Shown piece after piece: positions 5,042-56,953 of a stretch of 64,000 bases of DNA (within the stretch, counting starts at the first letter, position 1; each line of letters begins with the position of its first letter). A model generated the notes under the pieces. It had not been told where the DNA came from and did no database searches. It was given only the letters and a program-made list of their open reading frames with translations. A program made the position numbers and the translations under genes. Origin of the DNA: a virus; the IMG/VR virus record IMGVR_UViG_3300025082_000005, positions 7,999 to 71,998 of that record; one strand, 5' to 3'.

Positions 5042-8000
5042 TGAAAGAGGAAGTACGGTCATTTCTTGGTGGAGTCAACAAGGACTCCAATGCTTTAGTA
5101 CAACCTAAGGATACATACAGACAAGCTTGGAATCTTGTACAGATCTCCAATGAAGGTAATGTATACGCTTTGGTGAATGAAGAAGGCACAGTACAGACTA
5201 CTACAGTCTTTCCTGATGGCTTTCATGTCATAGGTAAATTTGTATTAGATACTGACCTTATTGTCGTATTGGCTCATCCGTCTGGATACTCACAGGTAGG
5301 CATTGTAGATGCTACAGGGCTGTATGAACGTAAGGTACCAAACCCTAACGATGGGGCTCCTGGTGATGTTAATTCGGAACTAGGCTTGAATATCGATAAC
5401 CCTGTAGACCTAATAGCTAGGAAACGATTAGCAGGAGATCGAATTGTATACTTCTGTGATGGACCTAATGGAAGACCTATGGGCTCTTTGAACCTAGATA
5501 ATCCACCACCTTTAGGAGATATAAGCGATAATTCAAAGGTTATCCCTGATCAGAACCTTACTCAAATTGACCTATTGGAGGTTCAAGAAGTTTCTGGAAA
5601 CCTACGAAATGGGATGTACCGTTTCGTAACAAGATATTATACAGCCGACCTTACTCCTACTTCCTTGGGTATTCCTTCTAATGGGGTCCCTATAGTTGAA
5701 GATACTCGTTCAGAGGGCAGAGACAAGTTCGATGGGGAATACCCAGACTTTGGTGCTGTGAACAAATCGATAGCCTTAACGGTAAGTAACATCGATACTT
5801 CATATCCTTTCATGTCTTTGATTGTGATTAGGTATGAGAATATAACAAACACCCTTACTGTAGAGGAGCAACCGCTTATCAATATTACAGGGGATAACAT
5901 GGTAGTCAATTATTCCGGCGATGAGACTGAGGTTACGCCGTTGACACAGGAGGAATTACAAGAGATTTCCATTTCCTACAACACAGCTAAGTGTGTGACA
6001 CAGAAGGATAATATAGCTTTCTGGTCCAACTTAACGGATAGTACTAATACGTTTGATGCAGAATTACAAGAGGTAGCTAATGACATTAAAGTAGAATGGG
6101 TAGTAAAGGAGGTAGACTATGCTCCTTCTGATGCTATAACTACTTTAGATGTCTTCGAGTTACAAAGCCTTCCATATGTATTGGAGAATGATGCTACCAT
6201 GATCTTTGAGTACATAGTATTACGCTTTACTCGTTCGATCAACTTTCCGATCTCTTCGGATGTAAATAACTATACCTTTCATAGTAGAGGGGACAATGCT
6301 AGTGCTACCATACAGATAACAAGCCCAGGAGATTTCCATGATGGCTTGGTTGGTGATACTATCCTTATCGATACTGTTACCTTTGTAGCTGTTCAAGCTG
6401 CTCCAGCGTTGCCAGAAGAATTTGATGTTACATCAGCCGATACTCTTACAATCTTAGCTAATTTAAATACAGCTATAAACAATCACCCTACACTTGCTGG
6501 TGTTGTATCTTCTGGTACAGATGGTATAGATACCATTACATTAGTAGCAGATGTAGTGGGAGTTGGCGGTAATAGCATAGCCTTAACTTATACAGATATT
6601 ACAGGCGTGGCTTCAGTAGTTACTGTAGGCTTCGCTGGGGGTGCTGCCTCTGTTGCGTATACTCCAGATGATGTTGTATTGCCAGCAGGAACTGATACAG
6701 ATCTTATTTACTTGCTGTTCAATGATGCACAATTTGGTGGTACTGGTAGTGGTATACCTCCAGGAGGTACATTAGACATAGCTGGTGTTCAAGATAATAC
6801 AGGACAAGTCTTTGCTGATACAGGGGTAGAGGTAAGTTCAAGCTCTACTGGAGGGGCTGCAGATGCTGCTATTGCCCTTGGTGAATTTACCGATTATAAA
6901 GCAGAGGCTATGACCTTCTATTTCAAAGGATACAGAAGGCAAGAAGTGTACTCCTTAGGTATGTTGGTTAATTTTACAGATGGTGCTCCCTCTTTTAATT
7001 ACCATATTCCAGGTAATGATAAGTCAACTGTAGCAACTACAGAGGCGGTTAGAGATGCAGCATTTCCTGACTACCATGATGAAACTTATGGACTTACAGG
7101 TACTTATGTATCTGCTACAGATAATCCAACAAATCAACTATATCCAGGGCCTGATCCTGGGGATGATAACCTATGCTATGACTCTGTTCTCGAAACAGAT
7201 GTTATACCAGCTAATAGGAAGACTAGACATCATAAGATGCCTACACTACAATTGGAGCCTCACTTTAGAGTTGATCCAACTACAGGTATTACCAAGATAC
7301 GTATCCTAGGACTTAAGTTTACCTTTAATACGCCTATGTCGGCAGGCCTTAGGGCTAATATTCAATCTATTACATTCACTAGAGAGCGTAGAGATACGGC
7401 CCAGAATCGTAGTATATGGGCGCAAGGGTTAGTAACAAGGTATGTAAATCTCTTTAGAACCTTCCCATACAAATGGGATTATGATCCATTGGAGGAAGCT
7501 AGTGATGGAAGATGGCGTAAGATGCCTTTCTATAACAACACCTTCATCAATAATCAAACTACAGATGAAGCCAAGGGGACAGCTATTATTAATGTGGCCG
7601 TAGGAACAGCTCCATCTATTGCTTATGAAGTGGCAGACGACCCTGCAGTAGACGATGGTACAACTGGAGCCAGTAATACACGTATGGCCTTCTTCTCTCC
7701 AGATACGCAATTAGGTGTGTTTAATCCTAACTCTGCTGAAGGGACTAAACTGGTTCCACAGATGCGACTGAATGGTACTTACATTTCTGGAGGAGAAATT
7801 AAACCTTCTCATAACTCAGAGGATGCCTTTGGTAGTGACTTGGTAGCTTCTACTACTACTACTAGATTGTATAAGTATATGCAAATCTGGACTATCGTAG
7901 ATTATACTAACTTCGAAGGGCTCGCCAATGGGGGCTCCTCTGATCCTGCGTTGAACCCAGCAATTGCTGAAGCTCGATATATACCTAAGGGAGCAGAGGT

Positions 8001-9945
8001 ACGGATATCAGACTTGATCCACAAGATCGACAACTCAACTAGTTCAAGACACTTATATATTAGAACAGCTGCAGCTCCTACCTTTGGTGTAGATTTCGCA
8101 GCAAAGCAACAGGTTAATTTCAAGGCAGAGATGTCAGCAGGGTTTAACTGGTTCTTCGATGATGGAAGTTATAGCAATGATGATAACTTCAGTGAAGGAA
8201 ACGTACACAATCATCTATTTAGTATGATTGCGGAAAACCTTAATCAATATGGTTCTCTTTCTGGCTCTGTCTATATTCCTATAGCTACAACTAGAAACCT
8301 TCCCGCGTTTGCGGGGGCGGTACCAGAACCTGAGATATTTGAAGGAGATACGTTCATATCCAAATTCGCATATCGAAACGTAGATGTAATTCCTTACAAA
8401 GGGCTACTGTCTTCTGTAGGAGGAGATATTATCACAAAGGTTAATACTGGAAATGGCTATTCTCAAGAGGATGCTACACAGCATGATGACTCTCCTATAC
8501 GAGGAATGAATTTCAAAGCGATCGGGTATTTCTTTGTAGAGTCTGGTATCAACTGTGAATACAGACACCAATATACAGATCGATCTGATCCTTTAGCAGA
8601 GATTCAAGAAGTTCCATACTTTCCAAAGGTGGACGCATATACAGCCTTGCAACAGCAAGCACAAGAAGGAGACTCCAAAGGGTATAACCTACAGTACTCC
8701 TTCGACAATGATTCCAAGACCTATTCTAACAAATCGGCTGCTCAAGTAACTGTAGGTGTATTTGAGAATAGGACTATATACTCTCAATCAGCTTTAGAGG
8801 ATGAAATACTTGATTCCTATAGAATCTACGCTCAGAACAATTTCTATGATATGCCTAAGCATACTGGTCCCATTTGGGATAACTTTGTGTATGCGAATAC
8901 TTTATATTTACACACACCTAAGTCTCTATGGAGGGCTTATGTTAATGATGCAACAATGCAGGCTACTTCTATTGGAGAGGTAGTACAAGGTACAGGAGGT
9001 TTATTCTCCATCCCGGCTAAGGAAGTAATAGTAAGTACTGGTGGTTACGCTGGCAGTATTTCCCAATTTGCTGGTGTCTTAACGCCTGTAGGTTACTTCT
9101 TTCCAGATGTATTACAAGGTAGGATATTCATGTTGGGCGGTGAACAACTTCGGGAAGTCTCTAATCGAGGTATGCAGAAGTACTTCGAGAACAACATGGC
9201 AGAGGGTTTAACTAATGGTTCCGACTACATAGATAATCCGTATACTGGTGTAGGCATCACAGGCGCTTATGATTTCAACAAACGTAGATATATTCTAGTA
9301 AAGAGAGGTACTACAAACGATTTCACATGGAGTTTCAGTTCCCTCACAGAGAAATGGATATCACAGCATAACTATTCTCCGAACCTACTCTTCTCCCAGA
9401 ATAATAAACTCTTGTCAATAGAAAACGCTACAGGGGCGAACGCAACTCTCCATGAACATAATGTGGGAGATTATGGTACATACTATGGAACTACATATGC
9501 TTCCTCTCTCCAGATGGTCTTCAATGAAGGCGCAGGCATAGAGAAGACGTATGATAATATGTTGCTCCATACCAAATCCTTAAACGGAGATACTGTAGTA
9601 CAATTTGATACTTGGGATACTTTACGTGTCCATACTGATACTAGGAACACGGCTACACATACAGTTGTGCCTACCAATGCCTATGGCACTAAAGCTGTAG
9701 ATGGTACGTTACAAGAGATACGTGCCACCAGAGTAAAGAATAAATATGCAATTGCCATCCCTGGAGATGCTGTAGTTGATGAATCATTGAGTATCTTTGA
9801 TGTAGGTAACCTAGATAGTGCTCGGCCTTATAAGCCAAGAATTAAAGGAGACCACGCAACAGTAGACTTAGTGTACAACAACACAGATAATTACAAATTT
9901 ATTATTAATTTTATATCCTGTCTATTTAGACCAAACGCTTCATAA
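5041..9945 (+). CDS. Muzzle/tail stabilization protein (P22 gp10-like)
   Basis: 1634 aa; N-terminal FLGGVNKD...YRQAWN; KGYRRQEVYSLG; C-terminal EKTYDN and RIKGDH patterns typical of crAss muzzle proteins. Confidence 0.8.
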   Translation: MKEEVRSFLGGVNKDSNALVQPKDTYRQAWNLVQISNEGNVYALVNEEGTVQTTTVFPDGFHVIGKFVLDTDLIVVLAHPSGYSQVGIVDATGLYERKVPNPNDGAPGDVNSELGLNIDNPVDLIARKRLAGDRIVYFCDGPNGRPMGSLNLDNPPPLGDISDNSKVIPDQNLTQIDLLEVQEVSGNLRNGMYRFVTRYYTADLTPTSLGIPSNGVPIVEDTRSEGRDKFDGEYPDFGAVNKSIALTVSNIDTSYPFMSLIVIRYENITNTLTVEEQPLINITGDNMVVNYSGDETEVTPLTQEELQEISISYNTAKCVTQKDNIAFWSNLTDSTNTFDAELQEVANDIKVEWVVKEVDYAPSDAITTLDVFELQSLPYVLENDATMIFEYIVLRFTRSINFPISSDVNNYTFHSRGDNASATIQITSPGDFHDGLVGDTILIDTVTFVAVQAAPALPEEFDVTSADTLTILANLNTAINNHPTLAGVVSSGTDGIDTITLVADVVGVGGNSIALTYTDITGVASVVTVGFAGGAASVAYTPDDVVLPAGTDTDLIYLLFNDAQFGGTGSGIPPGGTLDIAGVQDNTGQVFADTGVEVSSSSTGGAADAAIALGEFTDYKAEAMTFYFKGYRRQEVYSLGMLVNFTDGAPSFNYHIPGNDKSTVATTEAVRDAAFPDYHDETYGLTGTYVSATDNPTNQLYPGPDPGDDNLCYDSVLETDVIPANRKTRHHKMPTLQLEPHFRVDPTTGITKIRILGLKFTFNTPMSAGLRANIQSITFTRERRDTAQNRSIWAQGLVTRYVNLFRTFPYKWDYDPLEEASDGRWRKMPFYNNTFINNQTTDEAKGTAIINVAVGTAPSIAYEVADDPAVDDGTTGASNTRMAFFSPDTQLGVFNPNSAEGTKLVPQMRLNGTYISGGEIKPSHNSEDAFGSDLVASTTTTRLYKYMQIWTIVDYTNFEGLANGGSSDPALNPAIAEARYIPKGAEVRISDLIHKIDNSTSSRHLYIRTAAAPTFGVDFAAKQQVNFKAEMSAGFNWFFDDGSYSNDDNFSEGNVHNHLFSMIAENLNQYGSLSGSVYIPIATTRNLPAFAGAVPEPEIFEGDTFISKFAYRNVDVIPYKGLLSSVGGDIITKVNTGNGYSQEDATQHDDSPIRGMNFKAIGYFFVESGINCEYRHQYTDRSDPLAEIQEVPYFPKVDAYTALQQQAQEGDSKGYNLQYSFDNDSKTYSNKSAAQVTVGVFENRTIYSQSALEDEILDSYRIYAQNNFYDMPKHTGPIWDNFVYANTLYLHTPKSLWRAYVNDATMQATSIGEVVQGTGGLFSIPAKEVIVSTGGYAGSISQFAGVLTPVGYFFPDVLQGRIFMLGGEQLREVSNRGMQKYFENNMAEGLTNGSDYIDNPYTGVGITGAYDFNKRRYILVKRGTTNDFTWSFSSLTEKWISQHNYSPNLLFSQNNKLLSIENATGANATLHEHNVGDYGTYYGTTYASSLQMVFNEGAGIEKTYDNMLLHTKSLNGDTVVQFDTWDTLRVHTDTRNTATHTVVPTNAYGTKAVDGTLQEIRATRVKNKYAIAIPGDAVVDESLSIFDVGNLDSARPYKPRIKGDHATVDLVYNNTDNYKFIINFISCLFRPNAS

Positions 9946-50453: not shown

Positions 50454-51146
50454 CTATTGTGTTTGATATACCTTTTCAGTTATGTGCTTTGAAACAGCAG
50501 CTAGTGTCATTTCTTTAGCTATTGTACTAGTAAATGTAGGCATCCTTGCTTTACCAAACAACACATCCAAATAAGCTGCGTCCTCTATAACTGGTATATC
50601 CTTCAAAGAAGGATCAGAAATTAGGAACTCTTTATACAGCCTTGCTCCCCCTTTCCAAGGTGTTTTATTCCTAGGAAGAAGGATATCAGGGTTTATAACT
50701 AATCGAAAGGCGTCAGGCTCTACTTTTCTACCAATCCTGGAGCAAGCTAAAACATATTCTATTTGCCCCGGAGATACACATAGACAAACTAAAGGCCTAA
50801 TAACACTGTCTACTCTTAACCAATATCCATTACTCATTACTTCATTTGTTCCTACTTGTACACATTGTCCAAGAAAACCAAAGGCACTTATATATGTTAT
50901 ATCGCAGAAAGTAGCAGCAACACCATCAGTCCTATGAGAATACAGAAAGTACTCTGCTGCTTCTTGGTATGTAGTACGCCCATATACATTATCTATAGAA
51001 GGAAAGACAAAAGGAACATAAGGTCTATGCCCCTCTATATTTAAATTTAAAGCTTGTACTGGTATAAGAGATTTACGTTTACACAAAGTTTTAGGTACAA
51101 GAAGCTTCTTAGTTAGTGGCCCTCTGTGTCGTCCTGAAAGTGTCAT
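50454..51146 (-). CDS. Hypothetical protein translationally coupled to the E1 gene
   Basis: 230 aa; ATGA overlap with the ThiF stop; no recognised motif. Confidence 0.6.
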   Translation of the reverse strand: MTLSGRHRGPLTKKLLVPKTLCKRKSLIPVQALNLNIEGHRPYVPFVFPSIDNVYGRTTYQEAAEYFLYSHRTDGVAATFCDITYISAFGFLGQCVQVGTNEVMSNGYWLRVDSVIRPLVCLCVSPGQIEYVLACSRIGRKVEPDAFRLVINPDILLPRNKTPWKGGARLYKEFLISDPSLKDIPVIEDAAYLDVLFGKARMPTFTSTIAKEMTLAAVSKHITEKVYQTQ

Positions 51147-51832
51147 ATTTCTATCTCAGTAAAGATTAAACATGATTCATATCGAAGCTTAAAGGGTACA
51201 TCTCTTAAATCCATAGCTACTTTATAGTTAGTCATATAATTATTAAAGATTTGTACCATCTTCGAACCTATTTCAGCTCCAATATGAGAAGTTGCCTTCA
51301 TTGAACAAGCAAGATCCCCTACCTCGTTATCATGAAATAGAGTCTCTTTGTACCTCTCTGCTCGATCAGGAGTAACTGCATAGATTTGATAACTCTCTAC
51401 AGTCATTCTACCATCGATAAAGATTGCCGGTTTTGTAGCTCTTTGGAATTGGTTCTTTTCATACCAACTAGCAAACATATCTGCTCTTGCTTCCATATTG
51501 TCGAAACCGGAAAACACAATATTTGTAAGAGGATCACCATATTTATATCTTCCCATTAGCTCAACCTCTTCTCCTCCAGAGAAGTCCTTTACCAACTCTT
51601 GGACAACCTGTGCTTTGCTTTTCCCTATAGAAGATGTAGGATAGCATTGGCCTCCCATGTTTGTATACTCTATGAAATCGTCATCGTACACCTTCATAGG
51701 AATACCTTGACGCCCTAGAAACATGGCTAGCCAGGAACCTATTCCTCCTACGCCTCCTACCGTTACAGCAGGGAAGTTATTTGAGAACCAGATACAATCC
51801 TTGAATCTGGCTCTATAGTTATCATCAGTCAT
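51143..51832 (-). CDS. ThiF/E1-like adenylyltransferase
   Basis: VGGVGGIGSW, YDDDFIEYTNMGGQ, KSKA, FSGFDNMEAR and FIDGRM; candidate catalytic Cys in LACSMK (51305-51307). Confidence 0.9.
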   Translation of the reverse strand: MTDDNYRARFKDCIWFSNNFPAVTVGGVGGIGSWLAMFLGRQGIPMKVYDDDFIEYTNMGGQCYPTSSIGKSKAQVVQELVKDFSGGEEVELMGRYKYGDPLTNIVFSGFDNMEARADMFASWYEKNQFQRATKPAIFIDGRMTVESYQIYAVTPDRAERYKETLFHDNEVGDLACSMKATSHIGAEIGSKMVQIFNNYMTNYKVAMDLRDVPFKLRYESCLIFTEIEI

Positions 51833-53033
51833 AAGGTAATTCGGGATTTATACTTTGCATTTCTAATACATCTAAAGCGTCTTCAATTGCTTCCCATATA
51901 GTAAAGTCAGGGCCGTTTCTGTTTACTAAGGCACCACGAAAACCATCAAGAAGTCCATCTATAGTTTCTCGTTGCTCTGCTTCTGCAAATACCTTTGGAA
52001 AGAAGGCGATTAAAGAACGCCTATAATTACTTATATCCTGCTCTCTTTCAACTCTGTGTAGTACCTCTGTAAGAAGGTCTTCTGATAGCATATCCAAAGC
52101 AAGCCACTTTGCACATAATTGAGAGATTTCAAGGTTAGTCATAGCTACATCCATAAGACTATCTTCATACTTCTTCTTTTCGATGTCTTGTTTAGTGTTA
52201 TACCATCCAAATTCTTGTTTAGGCGCTTCATCAATCTTAGTAAACTGCTTCTGGAACCAATCCTCTACAGGGGCTGTCTCAATCTTCACATCACATGAAA
52301 TAAGAATAAGCTTCTCTTTTCCTTTGATAATAGAAGAGATTTCTGCCCCTGTTTCATCCTTATGCGTCAGTCTTCTATCTTCCTCCTTTGCATGGATAGC
52401 AATCTTAGCCGAATACTTCTTTCTAAAGTTCACGATCAGAGACAAATAGTAAAGGAATTGCGAAGCATTGCTATGTAATTCATTCATATCTGTCATGGAG
52501 AACGCGGTATCCATAACATGATGAGAATGCACATGGCCCATCATCCAAGCAGGAGACTCCATTATTTGTGGGTAAATCTCCATAATATCTATGATACTAG
52601 TCCCAATACTATACTCGGTAGCACTGTGGCTACCTATATGTAAAGGAAAGACAGCATGCACATTTATTACAAGTGTCTCTGGATCAGCAATTGAGCCCTC
52701 TTTTATTTCGTAGATTAGAACGCCACTCCATTCATTATTTCCTACTTGTTTATGTAGGAAATCTACTTGCTTCTCAAAGGAAGAAAGAGAGAGGATCGTC
52801 GGGCAGGCTTTGTGCGTTATCGTTGACAGTTGCTTCGTTGGTTTCGTTGTTGCATAGCCAGCGAAGTCTAGCTCTTTGGTCTCTCCTATCTGGGATTTCC
52901 CCTGCCCTTTCTTTCTCGGATACTTCCCTTTCAACTCCGAAGGCCTTACTATCTTCGGCACTTTTAATTTCGAGGCCCGATGGGATGTTTGAGATCGCTG
53001 CTCCTTTGTATTGTATTTCTTCTTGGTTTTCAT
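51825..53033 (-). CDS. JAB/MPN+ (JAMM) metallopeptidase
   Basis: EWSG plus H-S-H-x7-S-x2-D (HSH HVMDTAF S MT D, 52488-52529) and YLSLIVN. Confidence 0.88.
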   Translation of the reverse strand: MKTKKKYNTKEQRSQTSHRASKLKVPKIVRPSELKGKYPRKKGQGKSQIGETKELDFAGYATTKPTKQLSTITHKACPTILSLSSFEKQVDFLHKQVGNNEWSGVLIYEIKEGSIADPETLVINVHAVFPLHIGSHSATEYSIGTSIIDIMEIYPQIMESPAWMMGHVHSHHVMDTAFSMTDMNELHSNASQFLYYLSLIVNFRKKYSAKIAIHAKEEDRRLTHKDETGAEISSIIKGKEKLILISCDVKIETAPVEDWFQKQFTKIDEAPKQEFGWYNTKQDIEKKKYEDSLMDVAMTNLEISQLCAKWLALDMLSEDLLTEVLHRVEREQDISNYRRSLIAFFPKVFAEAEQRETIDGLLDGFRGALVNRNGPDFTIWEAIEDALDVLEMQSINPELPYD

Positions 53034-53955
53034 AAGAATATGTTAGTAAATATTTGTTAAATGTGGTTATAATGTACTTAGCAATAGTTGGCTCAGCGTG
53101 TGTATATTCTTGCTCCTTTGCTACCTCTTCTTGTTTTGGCTTTAGTATGGTACGAACAACAGCTTTTCCTTTGAATATAAGAGCTGTAGGCCCTTTATGC
53201 CTCTTCTTTGCTCTCAACCATAGCTTTAACTTATGGTATTGTGAAGCAGCTGTAACAAATAAATTATTTACCATAACACCTTTAATTATACTTGCAGCAA
53301 GTAATTGTTTACGTAACTCCTCTCCTTCGGCCAATACTATCTTAATGCTTGTATTGCCTGAGTATTTGTATGTAAGAAGAGGAGGTTGAATACGTGCTTG
53401 CTTTAGAAACGCCTTGATACTTAATCCCTTAGCATCACTTGTATCAACTGCTGCTGGTAGTCCGATCGTACTAAGTAGTATATGAGGTGTGCCTGCTATT
53501 GACTCCCATTCAAGATATGGTTTAAGGTGGTATAGAAAGGTTTCAAACGTGTCCCAAGTGAAATCACTACGCAACATTGTCATTAACATGTGAATAGGTG
53601 TATTGATACCACCAAGGCAAAAGGTATTAAGAAAGTTATAATGCTTAGGAGAAAGATGAGAGTGGCCATAACCAACTAGCTCTTCTTCTAATGTAAGGGT
53701 TCCTCGCATACCTTGTAACTCTGCCATCATATGTATATGTTGATTGCCATTAAGTGCTATATAAAACCTAACATAGAGATCTCGAATTAAGTGAGATTCC
53801 TTTTCGTTCTTTATTGTTATTTCTCTAAAGCGAATAGTAACATATACTCCTGTTATTTCCTGTATAATATCTACATTCCTTTCTCCAAATAATGGGTTAC
53901 ACAGATCTTTTACTTTCTTGGTAACTAAAGCTTTTCTACTTCGTATGTAGTTCAT
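52774..53955 (-). CDS. Prokaryotic E2-like (UBC-fold) protein
   Basis: GYGHSHL...FCLG (Cys codon 53617-53619) resembles the HPN/HxH...ICL core of E2 enzymes; lies between the Ubl and JAB genes; ATG at 53955. Confidence 0.65.
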   Translation of the reverse strand: MNYIRSRKALVTKKVKDLCNPLFGERNVDIIQEITGVYVTIRFREITIKNEKESHLIRDLYVRFYIALNGNQHIHMMAELQGMRGTLTLEEELVGYGHSHLSPKHYNFLNTFCLGGINTPIHMLMTMLRSDFTWDTFETFLYHLKPYLEWESIAGTPHILLSTIGLPAAVDTSDAKGLSIKAFLKQARIQPPLLTYKYSGNTSIKIVLAEGEELRKQLLAASIIKGVMVNNLFVTAASQYHKLKLWLRAKKRHKGPTALIFKGKAVVRTILKPKQEEVAKEQEYTHAEPTIAKYIITTFNKYLLTYSYENQEEIQYKGAAISNIPSGLEIKSAEDSKAFGVEREVSEKERAGEIPDRRDQRARLRWLCNNETNEATVNDNAQSLPDDPLSFFL

Positions 53956-53962
53956 AATAGTC

Positions 53963-54002
53963 AAATAAAAAGGGGTTCCTACATTGCTGCAAGAACCCCT
54001 TT
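53963..54002 (-). terminator. Intrinsic terminator between the Ubl and E2-like genes
   Basis: Minus strand AAAGGGGTTCTTGCA-GCAA-TGTAGGAACCCCTTT followed by TTATTT. Confidence 0.8.
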
Positions 54003-54025: not shown

Positions 54026-54706
54026 CTACCTTCTATTTACTTCGTCTTGAATGTCCTGCCATTCCTTATCTAAGCCTTCGAATATATCGATACGCTTCTC
54101 TACGGTAATGGTAGTCTTGATTCTGTCTACAACAGACAGTACACCTTCTCTCATTTCTTCCATGAGAACAGAAATTTCTTCCTTAGCTGCTGCTATCTCT
54201 GCTTCAACTTCAACAGGTGCTTCTGTATTAACAGGGTCAGCTGCAACTACTTCTTCTACCTTTTCTACTTCTTTATTTGGTGTTGCTTTCTTCTTTGGCG
54301 CTAGGATATCTGCCACTTCTGCAGGAGTGTACTCAGCTTTTATACGTCTTTGTTTATCTCGTAGACGTCTAAGTAAAGCCTTCTCATCTCCAGTAGTACC
54401 TAGGTTTAAGTGCTTACAAACCTTCTTCAATTCTTTCTTCTTAAGGTTTGTGAAGGCGTCTTCCTTCTTAAGCCTTATACCAGATTTCATCTTAGTAGCA
54501 ACAATGAAGAGAGTAAATTCTGTTGCTGGTAGAATCGCTTTGTCCATATTAAGCGTGTTATTTGTTCCTTTGATAACCGCTTCAATATTTCCTTGGGCAA
54601 GCTCTCCCAATTCTGCTTTTAGTTCTCCCCAATGGGTAGCTTCTGTTTCATGTTGTTTCTTTACCCCAGTAAGGCCAGAAAACACGATAATCTTACGTTT
54701 AACCAT
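54026..54706 (-). CDS. Ubiquitin-like (beta-grasp) domain fused to a SAP domain and an acidic helical tail
   Basis: Residues 1-76 show a beta-beta-alpha-beta-beta pattern ending FTLFIVATKMKSG; then LKKKELKKVCKHLNLGTTGDEKALLRRL (SAP consensus). Confidence 0.7.
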   Translation of the reverse strand: MVKRKIIVFSGLTGVKKQHETEATHWGELKAELGELAQGNIEAVIKGTNNTLNMDKAILPATEFTLFIVATKMKSGIRLKKEDAFTNLKKKELKKVCKHLNLGTTGDEKALLRRLRDKQRRIKAEYTPAEVADILAPKKKATPNKEVEKVEEVVAADPVNTEAPVEVEAEIAAAKEEISVLMEEMREGVLSVVDRIKTTITVEKRIDIFEGLDKEWQDIQDEVNRR

Positions 54707-55690
54707 TTAACTTATATTTAATAATTGTACAATTAATTGCTTTGTTTTGCTCAGGCCATGAGCTTTGAGATAATCACTGATATCCTTTTCCTTTCCAGGA
54801 AGGACAAAGAAAGGAATCTTATAGTGCTCACTGTTCCTCTTGGCCCACTTTATACCCGTTTCATCATTGTCGAAGAGAATGTAAAGTTCGTAATTGCTTA
54901 GGATCTTTATAGTTTCTGAGTCTAGCAAGGCTCCCTCACTAGGAGGAGCAAAAGCTGAGAACCCCAATTTGTCTAAGACTATTACGTCCTTTAGGCTCTT
55001 GGTAATGATGATTTCATTGTTTATACCTAGTTCTAACTCGTTCCAACCCTGCATATGAGGGCCATTTGATAAGAAACGAGGGGCATTATCACCATTACGA
55101 TAAGGGAAGTATATTTTATAATTTCCATTCCCGAAATAGTAGGCATAAGCTGGATCACTAGGTCTGTATTCATATTGGATAACCTCATTAATCCACAGTA
55201 CTTTAATAGGCACTACATTAAACTTATTCAGATCCTTACGTGTCAAGTAGAATTGGGTCCAGAAATCCTTATCTCCAAGGGTCCAATCTCGCTTCTTGAT
55301 ACTAAAGACCTTCTTTCTAGTTGTGAGGTCGGTAATGAACTTCTTATGAATATCGTATGTAATGGGGGTGTCTTGTGTTAAGGCGAAGTCTTGAGCAATA
55401 AGATGAAGAGCTTTATTGTAGTTAAGGTTAAACTTGTACTTAACTATATCAAAGCAATCACCGTAGAATTCGCCATTGAAGTCTTTGAGGTAGATGCCAG
55501 CATTTGTTTGCCGGAACGAACAAGACGGACGTTTGTCATTCTCTCTCAAAGGCGATTTAAAGGCTTTACTATATTGAACGGTAATACCAAGGTATCTCTG
55601 AAGAATTGCTTCCTCAGAGATCCTTGATAATATAAAATCTCGATCAACTTTAGTACGAGCCTTTGAAGGTATGTTCTTACTAGTAAACAC
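54707..55690 (-). CDS. DNA primase (DnaG-like, crAss type)
   Basis: SPLRENDKRPSCSF...KDF...GDCFD N-domain; TOPRIM motifs IITKSLKDV, FDNDETG and KDISD. Confidence 0.88.
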   Translation of the reverse strand: MFTSKNIPSKARTKVDRDFILSRISEEAILQRYLGITVQYSKAFKSPLRENDKRPSCSFRQTNAGIYLKDFNGEFYGDCFDIVKYKFNLNYNKALHLIAQDFALTQDTPITYDIHKKFITDLTTRKKVFSIKKRDWTLGDKDFWTQFYLTRKDLNKFNVVPIKVLWINEVIQYEYRPSDPAYAYYFGNGNYKIYFPYRNGDNAPRFLSNGPHMQGWNELELGINNEIIITKSLKDVIVLDKLGFSAFAPPSEGALLDSETIKILSNYELYILFDNDETGIKWAKRNSEHYKIPFFVLPGKEKDISDYLKAHGLSKTKQLIVQLLNIS

Positions 55691-56304
55691 TAGAAGCCAT
55701 CTCCATCATCGTCTCCATCCTCTCCTTCTTCGAAATCGTCGTCATCATCATCCGATATAGGAGTACTACGAGCATCTGAATCGATATCAGGTGTATCCGT
55801 AGTGTACTCAAACGAATCATAACGAGGGTCAATGCCCCAATCCAAGGGTCTAATCTCAGAAGAGATAAAGTTTGGAAAGAGAGGCAAGGCTGCAAACTGC
55901 TTCCCGTTCTTCTTGCTTGTCTTCACGACAATCTTAACGGTTAAACCCGTCTTCTTATTCGGTGAAGCTTTAACCATCTCTATAATCTGAGCAGCCCACG
56001 CTTCGAAAGTATCAGATTCAATAGCATCGATCTGAGCCTCTGCTTCTGCTCCTAGTATCGCACAAGCAATATGCTTAATACGAGCTATAGCGTTGTCTGC
56101 ATACTTCTCTTCGTACTTTGGGTGGTTTTCATCTATCTTGAACTCAAGATGCTCCAGCGTACCAAGGTCTCCTTTGAAGCTAAAGACCATGTTTCCGTCG
56201 TTGTTCACGATGATCTTACTAAGAGTAACCGCTACCTTATTCCCAGGCTTCAATACAGCCTTATCATTCTTGGAGCTTACTCCTTTACTACCTTTAAATC
56301 CCAT
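55690..56304 (-). CDS. Probable single-stranded DNA-binding protein
   Basis: Beta-rich core with a very acidic tail ending in Phe; between the ATPase and primase genes. Confidence 0.65.
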   Translation of the reverse strand: MGFKGSKGVSSKNDKAVLKPGNKVAVTLSKIIVNNDGNMVFSFKGDLGTLEHLEFKIDENHPKYEEKYADNAIARIKHIACAILGAEAEAQIDAIESDTFEAWAAQIIEMVKASPNKKTGLTVKIVVKTSKKNGKQFAALPLFPNFISSEIRPLDWGIDPRYDSFEYTTDTPDIDSDARSTPISDDDDDDFEEGEDGDDDGDGF

Positions 56305-56335: not shown

Positions 56336-56953
56336 TTAGAAATTCTCTGTGTCGTCAACAGCTTGAGGCTCCTCAGCAGGCTCTTCCTGTGGTTCTTCAC
56401 CTTGAGGCTCATCTACATGCGATGCCCTTGGATCCTCAGGTACTACCTCTTCCTCTGGAGAAGAATCATCTATAGTCTCCGCTTGTGGTGTTTCCTCTTT
56501 ATCTATTGGATCCAATGGATCAGGAATACCAGGAGCATCGTGCTCCATAGCTGCTTGCTCAGGAGAAACAGTTACTTCTTCTACAGGGGTAGGGGTATCA
56601 AATATAACAATTTTATACCATGTTGCACCAGCAAAGTCAACTGTTTCATCAGTAATCTTCCAACGTACCTTGATATCATTACCATCAATCAACCAAGAAT
56701 ACATCATTTCATCTTGAAGCTTTCCTGTCTTTGAGATAGACTTCCCTTCACTCCTCTCTGTAACAGAGGCGACATATACAATGTTTGTTCCATCCTCTTG
56801 TGGATCAACGCACATATCTACTCTCGAACCATCTGCTACATTAAGCTTGGACATAGCTGCTGGGCCTAATACTAGTCTATTGTTATCCAACAAACTAATG
56901 ATGGGAACTAACAACATTTCTTTGTTTCCACTTGTACTTCCTAATCTTATCAT
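56336..56953 (-). CDS. Hypothetical protein with a long acidic, Pro-rich tail
   Basis: N-domain with an AbrB-like pattern (NRLVLGPAAMSKLNVADGSRV); disordered E/D/P tail ending in F. Confidence 0.6.
   Translation of the reverse strand: MIRLGSTSGNKEMLLVPIISLLDNNRLVLGPAAMSKLNVADGSRVDMCVDPQEDGTNIVYVASVTERSEGKSISKTGKLQDEMMYSWLIDGNDIKVRWKITDETVDFAGATWYKIVIFDTPTPVEEVTVSPEQAAMEHDAPGIPDPLDPIDKEETPQAETIDDSSPEEEVVPEDPRASHVDEPQGEEPQEEPAEEPQAVDDTENF

Follow-up and report, generated by a model that had tools for sequence, protein, structure and literature searches.

The window analyzed here is the whole 64-kb stretch of DNA, which is part of a 72-kb record of an uncultivated virus (IMGVR_UViG_3300025082_000005). 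Our subject is an open reading frame (ORF) of 226 amino acids (aa) on its minus strand that encodes a ubiquitin-like domain (Ubl) followed by a long C-terminal tail, together with three downstream genes for a protein of no known family, termed X, a JAB/JAMM metallopeptidase (JAB), and a ThiF-type activating (E1)-like adenylating enzyme. The ATG of the Ubl-tail ORF abuts the stop codon of a DNA primase gene (taaATG). Codon 76 (ggt, at 54481-54479) falls within the local residues T71-K-M-K-S-G76-I-R, and a preliminary description of this DNA, made from its letters and translations, had noted that the frame runs on for 150 aa beyond this Gly, which is exact in the translated ORF. The gene set suggests a protein-tagging system of a crAss-like phage in which the Ubl may be made as a precursor. 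Features of the locus are collected in Table 1.

Table 1. Positions of the Ubl-tail gene, its parts, and the neighboring features in the window.
Feature	Position	Strand	Evidence or remarks
Ubl-tail ORF, putative precursor	54026..54706	-	226 aa; 256 homologues at E<=1e-3
Ubl beta-grasp domain, residues 1-76	54479..54706	-	AF2, Foldseek, VIA
K72-M-K-S-G76, C-terminal tail of the Ubl; Gly76 (54479-54481) is the proposed cleavage/activation site	54479..54493	-	Conservation, pLDDT
SAP-like helix-extended-helix module, residues 85-122, in the basic segment	54341..54454	-	PF02037, AF2, 2do5
Acidic helical region, residues 166-226 (H166-201, H212-225)	54029..54211	-	AF2, charge
C-terminal amphipathic motif, residues 206-223, IDIFEGLDKEWQDIQDEV	54038..54091	-	Common to most family tails
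Terminator-like hairpin, 15-bp stem, 4-nt loop, T-run; 24 nt past the Ubl-tail stop	53969..54002	-	RNA fold
DNA primase, directly upstream, replication-module context	54707..55690	-	Toprim_2; phrog_12622 E 1.7e-37
Protein X, 396 aa, no known family, candidate E2-like carrier	52774..53964	-	phrog_15310; alignment
JAB/JAMM metallopeptidase, 402 aa as called	51825..53033	-	Motif E101, H169-x-H171-x7-S179-x2-D182; alignment
ThiF-type E1-like adenylating enzyme, 229 aa, invariant Cys in C-x-x-K-x-T	51143..51832	-	PF00899 E 2.8e-11; phrog_15670 E 5e-55

No Pfam, NCBIfam, or PADLOC model matched the Ubl part, and its sole profile match was phrog_15560, a family of unassigned function (E 3.4e-4). In a phmmer search, 256 of 1.84 billion representative sequences matched at E<=1e-3, including 16 with E<=1e-10; the homologue statistics given here are drawn from the 150 listed among these 256 matches. 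AlphaFold2 (AF2) run on the single sequence gave an unusable model, with a predicted local distance difference test (pLDDT) value of 43. Supplied with an alignment of 149 rows (A1), in which 148 of the 150 listed matches were used and P0068 and P0054 were left out, the program returned a model of mean pLDDT 84.5, rising to 91-97 over residues 1-70. This model places strands at residues 4-10, 16-21, 41-45, 50-52, and 64-70 and a helix at 26-37, in the topology beta-beta-alpha-beta-beta-beta, followed by a less ordered stretch at residues 71-80 (mean pLDDT 65).

Comparison of the model with the PDB by Foldseek gave ISG15, ubiquitin and its variants, SUMO, and bacterial BilA (8tyx_A) as the top matches, with TM scores by target of 0.6-0.71 over about 77-85 columns. 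The E-values were modest, from 1.6e-3, because the query was a multi-domain model of 226 aa. In an independent structure search (VIA, 48,161 chains aligned), the 50 entries shown consisted almost entirely of beta-grasp or ubiquitin-like folds, covering model residues 1-72/76 at a root-mean-square deviation (rmsd) of about 2-2.5 Å and at Z 6.6-8.2, a range that can reflect a common arrangement. We assign the Ubl fold because the VIA list points one way and the Foldseek result agrees with it.

The Gly at the end of this domain is the most constant feature of the family. Conservation was scored over the first 125 residues of 152 sequences, comprising the window protein, 149 of the listed matches, crAss001 Gp79, and FpV4 gp53; P0054, a protein of 1079 aa with a spurious coiled-coil match, was dropped. 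Gly76 is a Gly in 151 of these 152 rows, and in A1, which excludes P0068 and P0054, it is the single invariant column. The residues before it are nearly as constant: K74 is kept in 140 rows and K72 in 130, while position 75 is Ser in 111 and Ala in 29, so that a small residue stands there in 140 of 152. The lone row lacking Gly76, P0068, agrees with a near relative up to the motif and diverges after it; P0068 is probably a chimeric or frameshifted call. With 256 matches at E<=1e-3 and one invariant column, Gly76, the observation lies far beyond chance. Ubiquitin ends in R-L-R-G-G, and the K-x-K-S-G tail, of basic-x-basic-small-Gly form and at an equal distance past the last strand, parallels it by analogy. 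Directly after Gly76, at the P1' position, Pro occurs in none of the 151 tails, in which it makes up 2.8% of residues overall; its absence may count as a small extra point for cleavage.

Beyond the Gly the family becomes highly variable. Tail length, over 151 tails, spans 2-212 aa with a median of 109; 143 of the tails measure at least 25 aa, and six library members end 2-5 residues past the Gly. In the window protein, residues 77-148 carry a net charge of +10 and residues 149-226 a net charge of -11. Pfam SAP (PF02037) matches residues 85-116 at E 3e-4 with 20.8 bits, under the gathering score of 23.9. At this site AF2 predicts two helices, H90-99 and H108-122, in blocks of pLDDT 96-98, and VIA aligned 58 residues of model segment 77-140 with the SAP domain of SF3B2 (2do5) at Z 6.8 and a poor rmsd of 4.5 Å. 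The closest relatives of the window protein keep the SAP signature; P0014 and P0128 are without it and retain the C-terminal region. Pfam matches in the tails of the 149 homologues were to SAP in 12 (E<=0.01, best 5.7e-7), HC2 (histone-H1-like) in two, HeH in one, and Rho_N in one. By thresholds of our own, eight tails are Lys-rich and 54 are acidic, and tail content is unrelated between clades. The Ubl homologue of cr126_1 (locus L020, 2323-3249, plus strand) carries a ribosomal L7/L12 C-terminal domain (CTD; PF00542, residues 158-220, E 5e-12, above threshold) between its KIRSG motif and a conserved C-terminal helix.

That helix is the second constant of the family. Most tails end in an amphipathic helix of the type L-x-x-E-A/x-x-x-I/L-x-x-x-F/L/V (consensus of alignment A2, GxDxFxGLxxExxxIxxE), and in crAss001-type tails the motif reads EI..MF.FV. 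A narrow regular expression for it matched 44 of 140 tail ends; shuffled tail ends gave 10.8 matches on average (maximum 19), and 3 of 107 tail starts matched. Because this helix is conserved, the tail is not a throw-away propeptide. Its conservation across the family, and the finding that SAP is just one among several interchangeable modules, are two points that go beyond the preliminary description. What that description had read from the letters agrees with the present data: the putative N-terminal Ubl is a beta-grasp by AF2, Foldseek, and VIA; the SAP motif after the Gly is a sub-threshold PF02037 match backed by the AF2 helix pair, the 2do5 match, and the SAP domains of homologues; and the acidic helical tail corresponds to the net-negative segment with its two AF2 helices. 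It had also proposed asking whether homologues conserve KSG and vary downstream, and both halves of this pattern were found in the counts above.

Several members of the family separate the Ubl from its tail at the gene level. Searches for close relatives came back empty: none of 50,697 phage records matched the ORF in tblastn at E<=1e-3, a word-indexed protein search returned only the query, and pattern scans of viral contigs with a single Ubl or E1 sequence had no match. The 149-row alignment was too variable for patterns; a subset of 13 rows gave usable ones, with which we retrieved 12 related viral-contig loci (over the region, L004 and L005 are identical, as are L008 and L009). In L007 the Ubl gene ends ...KVKSGK-stop and in L008 ...KVKSGR-stop, one residue past the Gly, and in both the start codon of an ORF of 48 or 51 aa, itself followed by a hairpin, shares bases with the TAA stop (TAATG). 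Between the two loci, this small ORF has 23 identical codons, 9 synonymous differences, and 16 non-synonymous differences. The L006 Ubl gene ends ...KVKSGTSI-stop and is followed by an ORF of 39 aa.

The clearest separation is found in cr106_1, a complete Crassvirales genome. Its Ubl gene encodes 92 aa with 82% identity to Gp79 of crAss001 (residues 1-90) and terminates in KIKSG-KF-stop, and a free-standing tail gene, an ORF of 130 aa, matches Gp79 residues 176-225 over its last 50 residues (38% identity, E 3e-8). Between them lies a homing-endonuclease gene with NUMOD4, NUMOD1, and HNH domains (L019, 2017-2532, plus strand). The break between the halves falls two residues past the invariant Gly. 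As the endonuclease gene sits exactly there, the junction of Ubl and tail is a tolerated insertion site; and because the L006-L008 genes stop 1-3 residues past the Gly and cr106_1 has a two-gene form, both a Ubl with a free end and a tail encoded on its own are viable.

The Ubl gene is accompanied by the same three partners in every informative locus. With hidden Markov models (HMMs) built from the window, FpV4, and crAss001 proteins, the order Ubl-X-JAB-E1 on one strand was found in all nine viral loci with enough downstream DNA (seven distinct sequences); three further loci, cut by contig ends, stand outside this count. The same order occurs in all six Crassvirales/FpV4 records that we fetched, by HMM in FpV4, crAss001, DAC15, and cr128_1, and by annotation and translations in cr106_1 and cr126_1. 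In the crAss-type records examined the block follows the primase, and in FpV4 a uracil-DNA glycosylase gene lies in between.

The catalytic residues expected of a JAMM peptidase and an E1 are intact. In the JAB, E101, H169, H171, S179, and D182 are invariant in 10 of 10 sequences, and all nine aligned E1 sequences share the nucleotide-binding motifs and one invariant Cys. Relatives of the E1 occur in 79 phage records; among PADLOC models it matched only CBASS E1-E2, at 7e-6 or weaker, far below the cut-offs. Invariant residues of X are R87, Y99, S102, H103, C116, G118, E154, S155, G158, and P160, and a WES..GGP block is likewise invariant. No Pfam match was obtained for X, with all 10 X homologues scanned, and no PDB sequence-profile match beyond one to NrN at chance level (E 0.03). 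A complex prediction of X (residues 1-260) with the Ubl (residues 1-80) gave a score of 0.01 and a mark of 0.32, which counts neither for nor against binding.

The X and JAB frames overlap by 260 nt (52774-53033, minus strand). A C-terminal extension of about 86 aa in X and a Lys-rich N-terminal extension of about 70 aa in JAB are absent in the nine homologues, and for this reason the true JAB start probably lies further downstream, or one frame has been read through. The E1 proteins of crAss001 (L003, 5557-6708), DAC15 (L017, 5704-6714), and cr128_1 (L018, 5731-6696) are longer at the N terminus, by about 90-150 aa, than the window and FpV4 proteins. A relative of the E1 is also encoded by the 227-kb Xanthomonas phage PhiXhv-12, where a 140-aa ORF about 2.8 kb upstream ends ...KASGG-stop (L016, 2745-3167, plus strand) and an 892-aa hypothetical protein lies between the two. 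The Ubl, X, and JAB HMMs had no match in PhiXhv-12, which may encode another kind of phage Ubl-E1 pair whose Ubl already ends in Gly-Gly.

The hairpin behind the Ubl-tail gene folds at -28.9 kcal/mol (z -5.9), which would fit a higher demand for this product than for the downstream enzymes. GC-rich hairpins with T-runs, judged by eye, lie past the Ubl genes (plus the small ORF) of L006 (about 8375-8410), L007 (about 5150-5180), and L008 (about 1695-1725), the same position as in the window. Upstream of the primase are two family-less proteins of 204 aa (55690-56304, minus strand) and 205 aa (56336-56953, minus strand), neither with a Pfam or PHROG match. One has a strongly acidic end (...DDDDDDFEEGEDGDDDGDGF) and the other an acidic, Pro/Glu-rich end, and these ends recall the tails of single-strand-binding proteins.

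We consider it probable that the JAB cleaves the precursor behind Gly76 into a Ubl competent for conjugation and a DNA-binding protein made of the tail, the first of two outcomes put forward in the preliminary description. The precursor reading is supported by comparative evidence, namely a ubiquitin-like fold, an invariant Gly followed by variable and modular tails, the split forms, intact JAMM and E1 motifs, and a four-gene order that is strictly kept where crAss-like and FpV4-like phages encode their replication module. Specifically, the JAMM/JAB peptidase of the operon would cut the Gly76-Ile77 bond. Next, the carboxylate exposed on Gly76 would be adenylated by the ThiF-type E1, which may then bind the Ubl in a thioester through its invariant Cys. 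From there the Ubl could be passed to targets, possibly via X and perhaps its Cys116, X being the candidate carrier on account of its invariant His/Cys pair and weak E2 leads. The released tail would act on its own, probably on DNA in the window phage through its SAP module.

A number of observations weigh against this proposal. Cleavage by the JAB, activation, conjugation, the targets, and DNA binding are all steps that we infer. The small ORFs behind the L006-L008 Ubl genes had no significant similarity to the roughly 145 fused tails (best E 0.013) and appear to be analogues of the tails in position only, which leaves cr106_1 as the only split proven by sequence. The six short-tailed library members come with no genomic context, and some could be truncated gene calls. 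The SAP match of the window protein misses Pfam's own threshold, and the conserved C-terminal helix leaves room for a role of the intact fusion. The JAB was identified from its motif; the family-profile matches are below significance, Prok-JAB at E 0.22 (11.9 bits against a cut-off of 25) and RPN11, profile against PDB, at E about 0.09. No conjugating enzyme (E2) was recognized with Pfam, NCBIfam, PADLOC, or PDB sequence profiles. The idea that X is an E2 comes from language-model look-alikes in the Atlas (clusters Prok-E2_D, UQ_con, E2-CBASS, and RWD) with scores of 0.76-0.81, values often reached by shuffled proteins, and TM below 0.5. Finally, the best named matches of the E1 are ThiF sulfur-carrier enzymes, so a role in sulfur transfer is possible.

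The second outcome of the preliminary description, an uncleaved precursor tethered to DNA by its SAP module, is disfavored. Here the protein would stay one chain, with the Ubl as an interaction module in the manner of UBX or UBL-UBA proteins, the SAP module as a tether to replicating DNA, and the Gly as a hinge, while JAB and E1 act elsewhere. The tails speak for it in having a conserved C-terminal helix of their own and in being long in most members, which are thus fused, and in VIA the UBX, DIX, and other non-conjugated beta-grasp domains score like ubiquitin. A hinge Gly, however, leaves unexplained the genes that stop 1-5 residues past it and the two-gene split of cr106_1 exactly at the junction. 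Nor does it account for the constant company of E1 and JAMM peptidase genes, or for the occurrence of a ubiquitin-like basic-x-basic-small-Gly tail in a flexible stretch. We therefore regard an uncleaved adaptor as unlikely.

A sulfur carrier is a still less likely account. The Ubl would be a ThiS/MoaD-like protein, trimmed by the JAB and adenylated by the E1, whose thiocarboxylate serves the thio-modification of small molecules or nucleic acids, with X as the sulfur user and no protein tagged. Sulfur carriers trimmed by a JAMM enzyme do exist in the pairs QbsE/QbsD and CysO/Mec+, and MoaD structures are among the VIA fold matches of our model (Z 7.0-7.4). Public records name the E1 a thiamine biosynthesis protein, and its best named matches are the ThiF families TIGR02354 (E 4e-11) and PRK08644 (E 6e-11); these matches, however, are far under the curated cut-offs (43 bits against 152). 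The Ubl terminus is K-x-K-S/A-G, ending S-G or A-G and not G-G, and no rhodanese, cysteine desulfurase, or other sulfur enzyme was recognized among the six operon and flanking proteins. Moreover, the top Foldseek matches are conjugated modifiers, and X has the His/Cys pair and the weak E2 leads.

It is very improbable that the Ubl is merely a folding or solubility chaperone, or a timing device for charged tails, discarded after the JAB cut with the E1 unrelated: the tails are indeed extreme in charge, either Lys-rich and H1-like or strongly acidic, and in eukaryotic ubiquitin-ribosomal protein fusions ubiquitin is thought to act partly as such a chaperone-like partner, but the Ubl gene is kept where the tail is a separate gene or is absent from the fusion, K72, K74, and S75 are conserved in addition to the scissile Gly, and an E1 with intact motifs and an invariant Cys is always present.

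Returning to a cleaved and conjugated Ubl, we compared the module with known systems. It would work like Bil and ubiquitin-fusion genes, but by profile it belongs to none of Bil, PRTRC, ThiS/MoaD, or TAPI. BilABCD (Bil; operon class 6d of Iyer et al. 2006) shares the four parts, a Ubl, a second enzyme, a JAB, and an E1, and BilA (8tyx_A), as noted, is among the Foldseek matches of the phage model. The Ubl of Bil also carries extra residue(s) past the reactive Gly that the JAB takes off: BilC pre-processes BilA, removing the residue after Gly97, and also cleaves a BilA-GFP fusion (PMC10557695). In contrast, Bil lies in a host defense island and the phage module is encoded in a replication module; the phage Ubl, X, and JAB match no PADLOC, Pfam, or NCBIfam model; the phage E1 has only 229 aa; the phage tails are long and modular with a conserved end motif; and the phage E2 is a candidate.

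Eukaryotic ubiquitin is made as precursors, fused to ribosomal proteins or as polyubiquitin, that are cut after Gly76. As in the ribosomal fusions, the phage protein joins an N-terminal modifier to a basic, nucleic-acid-binding type of C-terminal part, and its basic-x-basic-small-Gly tail has the same spacing from the last strand. The likeness of the phage Ubl itself is in fold alone, the candidate protease is the JAMM enzyme encoded next door, and the phage tails, unlike the eukaryotic ones, are swapped between phages (SAP, H1-like, bL12 CTD, acidic).

A phage example is the lambda/T1 TAPI protein with the JAB-NlpC protein TAPK, which resembles the window family in its phage Ubl, conserved terminal Gly, fused C-terminal domain, and adjoining JAB; JAB cleavage at the last Gly has been predicted for the lambda TAPI Ubl fused to its C-terminal domain (PMC1779556). 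TAPI stands in a tail-assembly module without E1, whereas the window family lies beside a primase with E1 and X. No TAPI match was found in the Pfam or PHROG scans and no NlpC/P60 in the Pfam scan. BilC/BilA and the lambda TAPI prediction are direct precedents for the proposed JAB cut after the Gly.

The PRTRC cassette of plasmids and integrative and conjugative elements is likewise a mobile-element set of Ubl, E1, and JAB type tied to DNA functions. The phage E1 is a weak match to TIGR03736 PRTRC_ThiF (E 3e-8), but at 33 bits against a cut-off of 144.75, and no match to Prok_Ub or other PRTRC models was found in the Pfam and NCBIfam scans. The archaeal SAMP/UbaA/HvJAMM1 system combines a small Ubl ending in Gly with a single ThiF-type E1 and a JAMM peptidase. 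SAMP conjugation is not known to need a recognized E2. SAMPs end in Gly-Gly without long tails and double as sulfur carriers, whereas the phage Ubl ends in S/A-G and is followed by long tails.

In the public records that we fetched, the module genes are labeled "thiamine biosynthesis protein", "metalloprotease domain", or "hypothetical protein"; likewise, three of the six closest structural relatives in BFVD are labeled uncharacterized and two others carry automatic names. A literature search over titles and abstract starts, with subscription papers and supplements beyond its reach, found nothing on a Ubl system in crAss-like phages and no paper combining crAss001 or crAss-like with ThiF. The sole mention of ubiquitin in PMC13139388 is a reference to Bacteroides fragilis ubiquitin. 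The gene-family tables of crAss-like phage surveys could name the module genes.

A broader proposal, which we offer tentatively, is that crAss-like phages and their Flavobacterium-phage relatives carry a complete, undescribed tagging system, in which the JAB would split a precursor into a tag and an exchangeable adaptor. The variable module of the adaptor might pick the site (DNA for SAP and H1-like tails, the translation machinery for the bL12 CTD), its end helix might dock on E1, X, or JAB, and tagging might be aimed at phage or host proteins associated with the replisome or ribosome. If true, such a system would combine, in viral form, the counterparts of ubiquitin-fusion genes and of substrate adaptors.

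To our knowledge, prokaryotic Ubl conjugation has been studied so far as host defense (Bil, CBASS Cap2/Cap3) or as archaeal SAMPylation. Here the same logic is met in viruses, as part of the replication module that a large lineage of phages carries. The crAss-like phages are among the most abundant of the human gut, and the lineage has cultivable models in crAss001 (on Bacteroides intestinalis), DAC15, and FpV4. The series of fused, nearly tail-less, and split forms in the family makes precursor processing accessible to direct tests. The exchange of tails gives a hint of how the system is aimed and, if the Ubl is conjugated, its targets would point to a new level at which phages control replication or host defenses.

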